In this document: piece after piece, positions 21,906 to 25,154 of the stretch | Layout of the letters: every line of letters begins with the position of its first letter | Numbering within the stretch: position 1 is the stretch's first letter | DNA from: Octopus sinensis | Lineage: Eukaryota | DNA: 64,000 nt | Reading direction: 5' to 3' | NCBI RefSeq assembly: GCF_006345805.1 | Contig: NC_043005.1 | Coordinates: 107,446,001 to 107,510,000, forward strand | Position numbers and translations under genes: made by a program | The notes under the pieces: model-generated | The model's database searches: none | The model's input: the letters and a program-made list of their open reading frames with translations, nothing else | What the model was told of the DNA's origin: nothing

Positions 21906-23380
21906 AAGTATGTGTGTATGTATAAGGTGAAATTGAGCGATTTCACTGCTATATTCTGTAAATTCTGTTTGACTAACATTTATGCCTCATTATAACTTCT
22001 CCATTTGTAAAGTATGGAATAATTCGTTCAACTTTCTTTTACCAGCATATTATTGTTATTATTGTTGCCATCGCTCAGCCCCAGGTCATCCTAGGTTTTC
22101 CGGACGTGACATGTCCCGGATTTTGTCTTTAGAGCTTTGCAAATTTTACTTATTTCCGTGTTCTTCCGTTTTGGGAGACTTGCTATTATTTGAAGGTGAT
22201 CATACAACTGAGAAGTATCTCTCTGTCACAGGTAAAGATATTTTCAAAGTTAAATGTATTTACTCCTAGTTGGAACTTTAAAATCTATGCTATTCCATTC
22301 TCTTCCGTTTGATTGTCATAACATTCTGAAGGCCGTACAGTGTTGTGGCAGGAGTCTAGAGCTCAGCATAAACCTTCTTACATGAAATAATCGATTTGTA
22401 ATCTTTACCATATCTAAAAATGAGAGGATAAGCATTACGGTATAGATACCTTCATAGCTTTGAGTCGGGGGCTTAAGAAGAGTGCTATCCCTTGCAAAAT
22501 ACTAGGGCTTTCATCGCTTCAATTTTTGTATTTGTCGTCCACAAGATAATGTTCTGTCACTGTAGCCTCCTAAGATGCATGCACACAAGTTCTGTGTACT
22601 AATAGCATTTTCAAAATATTGCAGGTTTTGCCGTCTGACGTAATTGCCAGACGGCAAAACTTTTCGTTACACCCCTAAGACCTCTAAGACTGAATATTCC
22701 GTCTGAGTGGACAGCCAATTGATTCTCAACGCTTGTCTGAAGCACATAAACTCCCTCAGTTGCTTGCTGGCAGCTGTTTTTAGTACCCATACTCATAGTA
22801 CTTATACTCATAAAGCACTACTAGAAGATTTAGCTTCTTGTCAAGGGCACACATTTCTTCCTATTTTTTAACCTCAGAGCTGATCCTAGCTACATACTAA
22901 TTAAGTACGATTATAATACATCGATGTTATTCAGTTTGCAGCGACCAGAAGATGTTTCTGAAACGGTAATTTAATCACTGTTCTCAGGAATGCTCCTGGG
23001 TATTAATTACCGAGCAATGTTTGTGAATATATAAAATATGCTATAAGTGCATTTCCTTTTCATGAGTGATTGACTGTCATCATCGTTCTCATCGTCTTCG
23101 TTGTTGTTATATTCGTCAATTTCATTGACTAAGATCATTCCCCCCAAAACATGTTATTAATTATGAGCTGATACTTTAAAAACAAAAACAAACGGATGCC
23201 CCCTACGTTATACATCTATCTAAAATAAAATAAAAACTACAATGACGATGATAAGCTTTGGATCGCACATCCTTAAGATACTAATGGCCAACCAAATTTC
23301 TGTTAGTGTCTATTACAAATTCTGCAGTTTAATAAAATCTATACCTTTCATGTACGCACACAATATATATATATATAATA

Positions 23381-23638
23381 TATCTGTAAAAGTAATATGT
23401 GACAATTATTCGGTAGCCCTGATAATACTCCGAGTTTCGGATGCCGAGGTGGAAATCCACGCCGCCATCCCTTCGGTTATCTGGTCATCGGAAAAATGTT
23501 ATGAAAAATGGCCGTTATACACAGGGAAATTATCATGGCTACCGAATAATTGTCACATATTTATTTTATAGATAAATTCCTCTATTTATATAAATTCGAG
23601 GTCTCTTTCATTCTTTTGTTGTCTTACCATTTTTATCA
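23381..23638. mobile_element. Fold-back module 1 of the chain (46-bp arms, hammerhead-like motif)
   Basis: Arms 23381-23426 and 23529-23574. Minus strand 23481-23421 reads GATAA-CCGAAG-GGATG...CATCC-GAAAC-TCGGA-GTA-TTATC (5-bp stem I; core lacks A9). (TA)n on both sides. Confidence 0.7.
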
Positions 23639-23650
23639 ATATATATATAT

Positions 23651-24270
23651 CGCAAAGTAAGGAATGCTACTTTTTTTAGCCCCAAGAAACATCATCTCCA
23701 GCTGGCTATACGACACACTGTGTCCTTATATTTTCGAACAGGACTTTAGCAGTGCATCTGTGCCGAGGAAGGGAAATAACCAAGAAACTACGGTCCACAG
23801 ATATTTGTTTCTTTATCACCCACAAGGAGCTAAACATAGAGGGGGCAAACAAGGACAGACAAACGGATTAAGTCGATTACATCGACCCCAGTGCGTAACT
23901 GGTACTTAATTTATCGACCCCGAAAGGATGAAAGGCAAAGTCGACCTCGGCGGAATTTGAACTCAGAACGTAACAGCAGACGAAATACGGCTACGCATTT
24001 CGCCCGGCGTGCTAACGGTTCTGCCAGCTCGCCGCCTTAGTCCACAGATATTGCTTTGTACTGAGTGTGGATGCTGAACTACCGTGTTCAAAAATATAAG
24101 GATACAGATAGTGTGTCGTATAGCCAGCTGGAGACGATGTTTCCTGGGGCGAAATAACAGTAACATTCGTCCTAACCGGGTCTTCCATATTTTGTTGGCA
24201 AATAATCTTTACCTTAGAGGACTATTACTGAATGTCGTTGAGAGATATAGAAATAATAATGCTTATAAAT
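23651..24270. mobile_element. Fold-back module 2 of the chain (~80-bp arms), interrupted by a SINE
   Basis: Arms 23662-23740 and 24085-24168, then a tail ending CGTTGAGAGATATAGAAATAATAATG before (TA)n. The same tail end recurs at ~25054-25080. Confidence 0.7.
23806..24039 (-). mobile_element. SINE family A, full-length, 13-bp TSD
   Basis: GTCCACAGATATT at 23793-23805 and 24040-24052. Confidence 0.92.
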
Positions 24271-24354
24271 ATTTATATATATATATATATATGTACGTAT
24301 GTATGTAATATATATATATAATATAATATATATATATATATATATGATATATAT

Positions 24355-24381
<27 letters not shown>

Positions 24382-24385
<4 letters not shown>

Positions 24386-24935
24386 AGCGAGAAAGAAACA
24401 ACAAGAATGGATAGGATTTTAGTACAATCTTTCATACAAGGACAGGCTTTATTAAATGTTGCAAAAATTACAGCATATAAACGTGTCCCGTACTCATCAG
24501 CTAAATACATGTGAGTTCTCTAGACATCCTAGTGGTTGAGGCTATACTCATGAAGTAATGTAGATAATTAAGTAACATAAACAGATTTCCAAAGTTCATT
24601 AAAGTTCTTTAAAGATGATGTACAGTCTTATCACAGAATTTTAAAAATTACTTCATGAGTATAGCCTCAAGCACTAGGATGTCTAGAGAACTCACATGTA
24701 TTTTAGCTGATGAGTACGGGACACGTTTATATGCTGTAATTTTTGCAACATTTAATAAAACCTGTCCTTGTATGAAACGATTGTACTAAAAACCTATCCA
24801 TTCTTGTTGCTTCTTTCTCGCTTATAATCACCCCACATTACTGTATTGTTAAAACAGTATAGTTTTTTTTTTGGTGCATCTAAGTTCCGTACCATATTCA
24901 AGTAAATTTATTTAAATTAACTTGAATCTTTATTG
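24382..24935. mobile_element. Fold-back module 3 of the chain (~178-bp arms with two hammerhead motifs)
   Basis: Arms 24382-24559 and 24647-24826 are nearly identical in inverted orientation, with an 87-bp spacer and a ~110-bp tail. (TA)n on both sides. Confidence 0.85.
24701..24791 (+). ncRNA. Type I hammerhead ribozyme, canonical core
   Basis: TTTTAG-CTGATGA-GTACGGGACA...TGTCCTTGTAT-GAAAC-GATT-GTA-CTAAAA. 6-bp stem I and extended stem II; ACGATTGT is self-complementary with G-U pairs. Predicted cut after A24785. The mirror copy on the minus strand at 24417-24505 lacks one C. Confidence 0.8.
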
Positions 24936-25154
24936 CTTTATATATATATATATATATATATTTATACATATAAATGTACGTATGTATGTATGCATATATA
25001 AATATATATATGTATATATATGTATGTATGTATGTATATATGTATGTATCTCTCGTTGAGAGGTATAGAAATAATAATGTTTTATATATATATATATGTG
25101 TGTGTGAGTGTGTGTATACGTGTGTGAGTGTATATGTGTTTGTGTGTGTGCGTG

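Follow-up and report, generated by a model that had tools for sequence, protein, structure and literature searches.

Three fold-backs lying side by side in a 64,000-nucleotide stretch of the Octopus sinensis genome (hereafter the window) are in all likelihood insertions of two kinds: units 1 and 3 come from Hydra-type Penelope-like elements (PLEs), of which they preserve the truncated 3' ends, and unit 2 represents, in truncated form, a non-coding 356-bp hammerhead repeat that was likely moved by an enzyme of the same kind; the three likely landed independently in neighbouring (TA)n DNA. In each insertion a truncated copy in inverted orientation abuts a second, direct one that is likewise truncated and bears the tail, and the three inverted-repeat units are separated by TA runs, with the tail always on the right side (Table 1). 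In units 1 and 3, the direct arm ends at the tail end (site A) and the inverted arm starts upstream of it (site B). The initial annotation had described three unrelated fold-backs at this place; its arm coordinates agree with ours, and the similarity among the units does not go past 10-nt words. Its arm-spacer-arm design was mistaken, in that 234 bp of the unit 2 spacer is an inserted SINE and the spacers of units 1 and 3 are the surplus length of the longer arm rather than distinct parts. Published reports are cited below for the accessible parts of their text.

Table 1. Features of the three fold-back units, in window coordinates (negative numbers count back from the tail end)
Feature	Position	Strand	Remarks
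Unit 1, arms	23364-23426 / 23529-23592		including flanking TA; ~46 bp without TA
Unit 1, inverted arm	23381..23528	-	antisense 5'-truncated copy of Hydra family 1 terminal repeat, site B (-67 from tail end) to ~-217
Unit 1, type-I hammerhead	23421..23481	-	core U4C, A9G; stem III near-palindromic
Unit 1, direct arm	23529..23640	+	67-nt tail, ends at start site A
Unit 2, arms	23662-23751 / 24072-24168
Unit 2, inverted arm	23651..23751	-	starts near monomer position 290; ~40-bp internal deletion (by eye)
Unit 2, direct arm, 5' part	23748..23805	+	contains type-I hammerhead 23758-23800, U4C
SINE inserted in unit 2	23806..24039	-	234 bp; high-copy
Unit 2, direct arm, 3' part and tail	24040..24265	+	356-bp monomer; ends near monomer position 350
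(TA)n tract separating units 2 and 3	24264..24385	.
Unit 3, arms	24382-24559 / 24647-24826
Unit 3, inverted arm	24382..24646	-	antisense copy of Hydra family 3 3' end, site B (-115) to -382
Unit 3, second hammerhead copy, in inverted arm	24505-24417	-	deletion in stem III
Unit 3, direct arm	24647..24939	+	-294 to tail end (site A); 115-nt tail
Unit 3, type-I hammerhead	24701..24791	+	core intact, stem II long, stem III palindromic
Extra unit 2 tail fragment, beyond unit 3	25049..25085	+	~35 bp

Palindromes within repeat-rich DNA are prone to assembly artefacts, here fold-back chimeras of long reads, and among the pieces listed no independent contig spans the turn of unit 1 or of unit 3, unit 3 lying outside the compared stretch. 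Short-read contigs from other runs nevertheless bridge the junction between the flank and unit 1 (X2, X5) as well as the inversion and SINE junctions of unit 2, including its turn (X5; 23707-23834, 0 differences), and the fold-backs are therefore real. The two arms of each unit also differ in sequence, and 933 exact junctions between TA and site B of the unit 3 family occur across the genome, leaving an artefact with next to no probability.

DNA searches of the source genome (2.72 Gb; 40 candidates scored per search) returned 2,321 first-look candidates for unit 1, 2,438 for unit 2 and 2,038 for unit 3, all of them lower bounds, which established the multi-copy status that the initial reading presupposed. 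Exact tail patterns were present at no fewer than 433, 21 and 1,009 places in the same order, and their reversed controls at 0. As BLAST-ranked copies overstate the uniformity of the units, counts were taken from pattern-anchored loci where possible: for unit 3, 67 of the first 72 tail matches listed (leaving out four in the tandem loci L151/L152 and one that is L024, already included); for unit 1, 29 tail-anchored loci, a 30th being the reference; and for unit 2, 48 loci, of which 29 were BLAST-ranked by score and 19 pattern-anchored. TA runs were compared with a background rate of 5-7%.

The initial annotation had taken the units to form a class of their own, made up of small non-autonomous fold-back retroelements that are fixed, ribozyme-processed modules. 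The best BLAST matches do cover whole units, all three units contain a hammerhead, and unit 2 does lack coding capacity. Such full coverage results from ranking, however, since unit 3 copies chosen by their tail alone extend upstream by anything between 41 bp and over 2,300 bp, reaching RT and endonuclease frames, and the turn points vary from copy to copy. Parent reading frames refute a fixed module for units 1 and 3, which are truncated ends, of freely varying length, of long protein-coding Hydra PLEs, so that the description as non-coding survives for unit 2 only; for the set as a whole we consider such a class very unlikely.

Longer copies of the unit 1 family continue into a 3' UTR and then into RT and endonuclease pieces, and in a younger subfamily the 717-codon frame is intact and contains every Hydra motif (locus L290); behind this frame, at a distance of 150-370 bp, lies the repeat that unit 1 matches (87% and 79%). 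Unit 3 maps to a 4.6-kb parent with RT plus C-terminal GIY-YIG endonuclease, whose protein is preserved as broken pieces in the same order, RT then endonuclease (loci L152/L153). Reading from motifs and an alignment with homologues, we found in both families a single ORF with RT and C-terminal GIY-YIG endonuclease, together with the CxCx5C linker and the CxxC and CxH motifs around conserved E and N; the N-terminal RWK and DKT (a modified DKG) were present in the L290 and L153 pieces, and CCHH was absent from both parent families in the same alignment, judged by eye. The proteins of the two parents are 23-43% identical over matched pieces. RWK, DKT, CxCx5C, CxxC and CxH define the Hydra clade, in which nearly every family inserts in (TA)n (PMC8557442). 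By these diagnostic motifs, we assign units 1 and 3 to 5'-truncated 3' ends of two protein-coding Hydra-clade PLEs, which bears out the Penelope link drawn initially. Pfam returned 0 significant matches for three unit 3 protein pieces.

Other PLE clades were considered and set aside: Neptune and Nematis require a CX2-5CxxC linker and CCHH, where we found CxCx5C, and Naiad has an N-terminal endonuclease and no canonical hammerhead, where units 1 and 3 have hammerheads and their parents' endonuclease is C-terminal. A MITE or foldback DNA transposon, with terminal inverted repeats and a TA target duplication, would likewise account for the inverted arms and the TA flanks. Here the inverted repeat is not terminal, a tail lying on one side, arm length differs from copy to copy, and the parents code for RT and GIY-YIG, their frames refuting this reading and making such an origin exceedingly improbable. 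Fold-backs of this kind are easily mislabelled in annotation as MITEs or miRNA-like hairpins.

The source genome contains 30,288 first-look candidates for Hydra-like protein, and another young Hydra family has many intact frames of ~727 codons in ~98% identical copies, with its own minimal hammerhead (e.g. C1:2700676-2702685; L252). One protein query is 82% identical, over a quarter of its length, to a database entry listed under an Octopus species. In one locus, a second PLE of another type, with a CX4CxxC linker, lies ~3 kb from a unit 1 family copy (L212:163-1911); we take it to be Neptune-like.

Hammerheads were called with our own type-I descriptor and family alignments; in the region, Rfam gave no hammerhead family at its gathering score, nor at E<=10, and its sub-threshold miRNA hairpin matches were rejected as generic fold-back. 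The hammerheads with palindromic stem III noted earlier in units 1 and 3 were recovered, while their restriction to these two units was not, as unit 2 has one too. The unit 3 hammerhead is the only match of the strict type-I descriptor within the window, and its core is canonical in 144 of 144 callable family copies (161 in total). For the unit 1 family, the canonical core was found in 48 copies and is the commonest form among 103 aligned; the U4C change of the window copy recurs in the terminal repeat of the intact-ORF subfamily (L256/L290), and may thus be a subfamily variant rather than decay. In 40 copies of the unit 2 family, the core columns are 85-97% conserved, positions 4 and 7 excepted, two members (L066 and L081) have a two-sided stem III change that preserves the palindrome, and many single copies have a decayed hammerhead. 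The ribozyme belongs to the parent's terminal repeat and is predicted to need dimerisation. For one PLE studied in vitro, hammerhead cleavage was not needed for insertion (PMC11167929).

The unit 3 family allowed the arrangement of the arms to be counted. An adjacent inverted arm was present at 50 of its 67 loci and lacking at 9, with 8 running off the locus; in the 47 cases with a complete inverted arm, its start lies at -115 in 42 and at the tail end in 0. TA runs adjoin the 3' end in 61/67 cases and the 5' end in 46/47, against 5-7% in the background, which upholds the earlier claim of (TA)n landing sites. The inner ends of the arms are at most 20 nt apart in 25/47 (permutation mean 2.8; maximum 10 in 10,000), and the asymmetric turns divide evenly, the direct arm being longer in 11/47 and the inverted arm, by up to 3.4 kb, in another 11/47. 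Two subfamilies are about equal in abundance, and both arms belonged to the same one in all 41 callable pairs (of 51). Anchoring on site B instead (n=24) gave 13 loci that resolve as fold-backs, each of which has its other end at site A, 3 with a solo copy ending at B and 8 that run off, a check that is barely independent, as 11 of the 13 are also members of the A-anchored set. Given the fixed start sites, the same-subfamily arms and the B-anchored fold-backs ending at A, each unit 3 fold-back pairs one A end with one B end, both likely made from one template.

A PLE protein was found in vitro to cut and extend both strands, using a pair of internal start sites as the limits of the tail; it is predicted to act as a dimer (PMC11167929). 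Combined with the one-A-one-B rule, this two-strand, two-site priming leads us to favour, on balance, a mechanism of two primings on one RNA followed by end-joining. In this model, the GIY-YIG endonuclease would cut both strands within the (TA)n tract and each freed 3' end would serve as a primer for reverse-transcribing one and the same element RNA, from the tail end (site A) in one case and from 60-115 nt upstream (site B) in the other; each of these sites has a short TA-like stretch that could pair with the target. Both cDNAs would halt early, often at one shared broken RNA end, and would be linked by end-joining, with resection on either side, to yield, between two stretches of (TA)n, the inverted arm followed by the direct arm and its tail.

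The symmetric turns (25/47) and the invariable single subfamily of both arms are equally compatible with the snap-back of a single cDNA, in which the site-A cDNA would fold back and copy itself, with the endonuclease cutting the new duplex at site B, or in which self-priming would occur on an antisense template. The one-A-one-B rule and the TA-richness that site B shares with the target fit this route as well, and both self-priming, for rotifer Penelope, and resolution by the endonuclease have been proposed in print (PMC3846280; PMC8557442). It would require later deletions where the inverted arm is the longer, a class as frequent as its reverse, and both the solo copies ending at B (3/24) and the direct use of both start sites in vitro (PMC11167929) argue against it, so that we regard snap-back as a real possibility short of a probable one. 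Against the two-priming model, in turn, stands the unit 1 family, where symmetric turns are not in excess (4/17; permutation mean 3.4, P 0.46).

At the junctions of L234, L219 and L113, short templated duplications were seen at several symmetric turns, which suggests microhomology-mediated end-joining. The arms of unit 1 in the window, read by eye, overlap by TTA. Of the 29 tail-anchored loci of its family, 17 include an inverted arm, whose start falls between -67 and -75 in 12, and 24 show a 3' TA run, again versus 5-7% in the background. One segment of 1.4 kb with a unit 1 fold-back is tandemly duplicated (L154:5518-8353).

Unit 2 derives from a head-to-tail monomer of ~356 bp (period mostly 329-369), which falls in the retrozyme size class (170-400 nt, non-coding head-to-tail); the family's copies, at 81-88% identity to that of the window, are partial monomers, dimers or trimers. 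The inverted arm of unit 2 turns at an inverted repeat native to the monomer. The circular fold of one natural monomer scored z = -2.7 against 60 shuffles. No linked sense-strand frame was found among the 48 loci, and RT similarity occurred at two of them, in antisense and, by eye, derived from the unit 1 family. We classify unit 2 as a new, non-coding retrozyme-like family.

The copies of this family have the footprint of a PLE. An inverted copy stands at the start of 27/48 loci, beginning at monomer position 284-301 in 16 of the 27, and the direct copy ends at 338-356 in 34/48, with more than one monomer in 19/48. TA flanks were found at 16/48 and 12/27 ends (33-44%, versus 5-7% background), an enrichment weaker than that of unit 3 in a sample with 29 of 48 loci picked by BLAST score. 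A protein-coding parent was not found, 0 of 14 sampled Hydra 3' ends (a small sample of the first-look candidates) matching unit 2, and its driver is therefore deduced from the footprint: unit 2 is probably a passenger of Hydra PLE machinery. Naiad PLEs, which also target (TA)n in Octopus, could be the driver instead.

The age of the copies and their dimers and trimers in tandem would also suit a terminal repeat orphaned from an old autonomous PLE and multiplied on the spot, like a satellite, by unequal crossover rather than re-inserted as a passenger, a route discussed in bioRxiv 2026.07.22.740005. The copies are, on the other hand, scattered among numerous chromosomes and have, in each case, fixed ends and an inverted 5' arm, the start of the monomer is preceded by the end of a previous monomer, and RT similarity is confined to the two antisense cases; we therefore think an orphan repeat unlikely. 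Taking the passenger reading of unit 2 together with the unit 3 rule, we tentatively propose, at slightly less than an even chance for the whole, that the unit 2 family is a retrozyme moved in trans by a Penelope-like enzyme with (TA)n as its target, which left its footprint on hundreds to thousands of insertions, and that PLE inversions arise by two-ended priming on a single RNA.

The SINE in unit 2 is bounded by an identical 13-bp target duplication (23793-23805 and 24040-24052) and has 12 further matches within the window; it is presumably a tRNA-derived octopus SINE, and ARAGORN found no tRNA in it. Its insertion is later than unit 2. The duplication starts precisely at the cleavage triplet of the unit 2 hammerhead, which is probably a coincidence.

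To place the chain in context, we considered 231 loci with 654 kb of flank, where a second family lies nearby at 7 loci (within 54 bp at 3) and all three families at 0. About one neighbour would be expected if candidate counts equalled copy numbers, so that the families may be moderately clustered, but true copy numbers are higher and any excess is tentative; the tandem accumulation claimed initially thus received weak backing. With all three families together at none of the 231 loci, the chain as one mobile unit was rejected, and it is best read as independent insertions at a common target. Judged by divergence, the unit 2 family is the oldest and the unit 3 family the youngest.

Hydra-clade PLEs as described in PMC8557442, including Hydra-1_Obim of Octopus bimaculoides, share with our families the C-terminal GIY-YIG, RWK, DKT, CxCx5C and CxxC/CxH, as well as a terminal-repeat hammerhead, a (TA)n target and an inverted truncated 5' copy with a tail; the published layout runs from an inverted 5' copy through a terminal repeat, the ORF and a second terminal repeat to the tail. 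Novelty in cephalopods, which the initial annotation had entertained, falls away with the listing there of Hydra PLEs with hammerheads and (TA)n preference for O. bimaculoides, and units 1 and 3 represent families that are new within a known clade, one already reported for octopus. The hammerhead of Hydra-1_oBim is unlike those of all three units, indicating different families, and a comparison of five unit motifs with the accessible supplement of PMC8557442 gave no octopus match and one match, to a coral element. Our tails of 67 and 115 nt (60-115) are longer than the published 30-40 bp, and the unit 3 parent, at 4.6 kb with a long 3' UTR, exceeds the published <3 kb (PMC8557442), two points that tell against the assignment. 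Part of this length is a long in-frame asparagine-rich insert separating RT from endonuclease (L152:3215-4495, minus strand), which resembles those described for Adineta Penelope (PMC3846280).

Poseidon PAc of Anolis, studied in vitro (PMC11167929), likewise has two internal RT start sites bounding the tail and AT-rich two-strand cleavage; it belongs to another clade, and its start sites are non-homologous to the target, whereas both sites here have a short TA-like stretch. Opposite-strand hammerhead pairs 100-700 bp apart, from truncated PLEs, were reported for Schistosoma (PMC4209133) and are similar to ours, and Schistosoma PLEs and Adineta Penelope (PMC3846280) share with our families the palindromic stem III, an extra base before stem II and palindromes at inverted junctions. 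Unlike the present analysis, the accessible text of these two reports tallied neither symmetric junctions nor the way in which end sites are paired. In the portion of a study of Octopus vulgaris that was accessible, active Penelope-like families are counted and ribozymes are not mentioned (PMC13282606).

Metazoan non-LTR retrozymes have in common with the unit 2 family a non-coding tandem monomer (~356 bp, against 350-390 bp in mussel; PMC7229834), one type-I hammerhead per monomer and coexistence with PLEs (PMC7229834; bioRxiv 2026.07.22.740005). Mobilisation of retrozymes by PLEs has been proposed from co-occurrence and terminal-repeat homology in the same two reports, in whose accessible parts we did not find the PLE-type footprint of the unit 2 copies, with its inverted 5' copy, two end sites and TA flanks. 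An integration footprint would be more direct than co-occurrence or homology, and trans-mobilisation, if true, would constitute direct genomic evidence of a retrozyme-PLE partnership. In the literature outside Repbase, Dfam, subscription journals and bioRxiv supplements, we found neither a PLE footprint on a retrozyme nor counted junction rules, and nothing on Penelope twin priming with inversion and GIY-YIG; the unit families may already be catalogued, and the footprint and the junction rules are possibly new. How PLEs form inverted repeats and why they prefer microsatellites are listed as open questions in PMC8557442. A young family with ~1,000 exact-match ends provides countable constraints on the inversion mechanism, and the intact Hydra frames of the source genome make it testable in vitro.

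Finally, the ~35-bp copy of the unit 2 tail beyond unit 3 has a base variant of the window's own unit 2 that is absent in 41 of 41 family copies counted, which suggests that this fragment is a local duplication rather than a new insertion.
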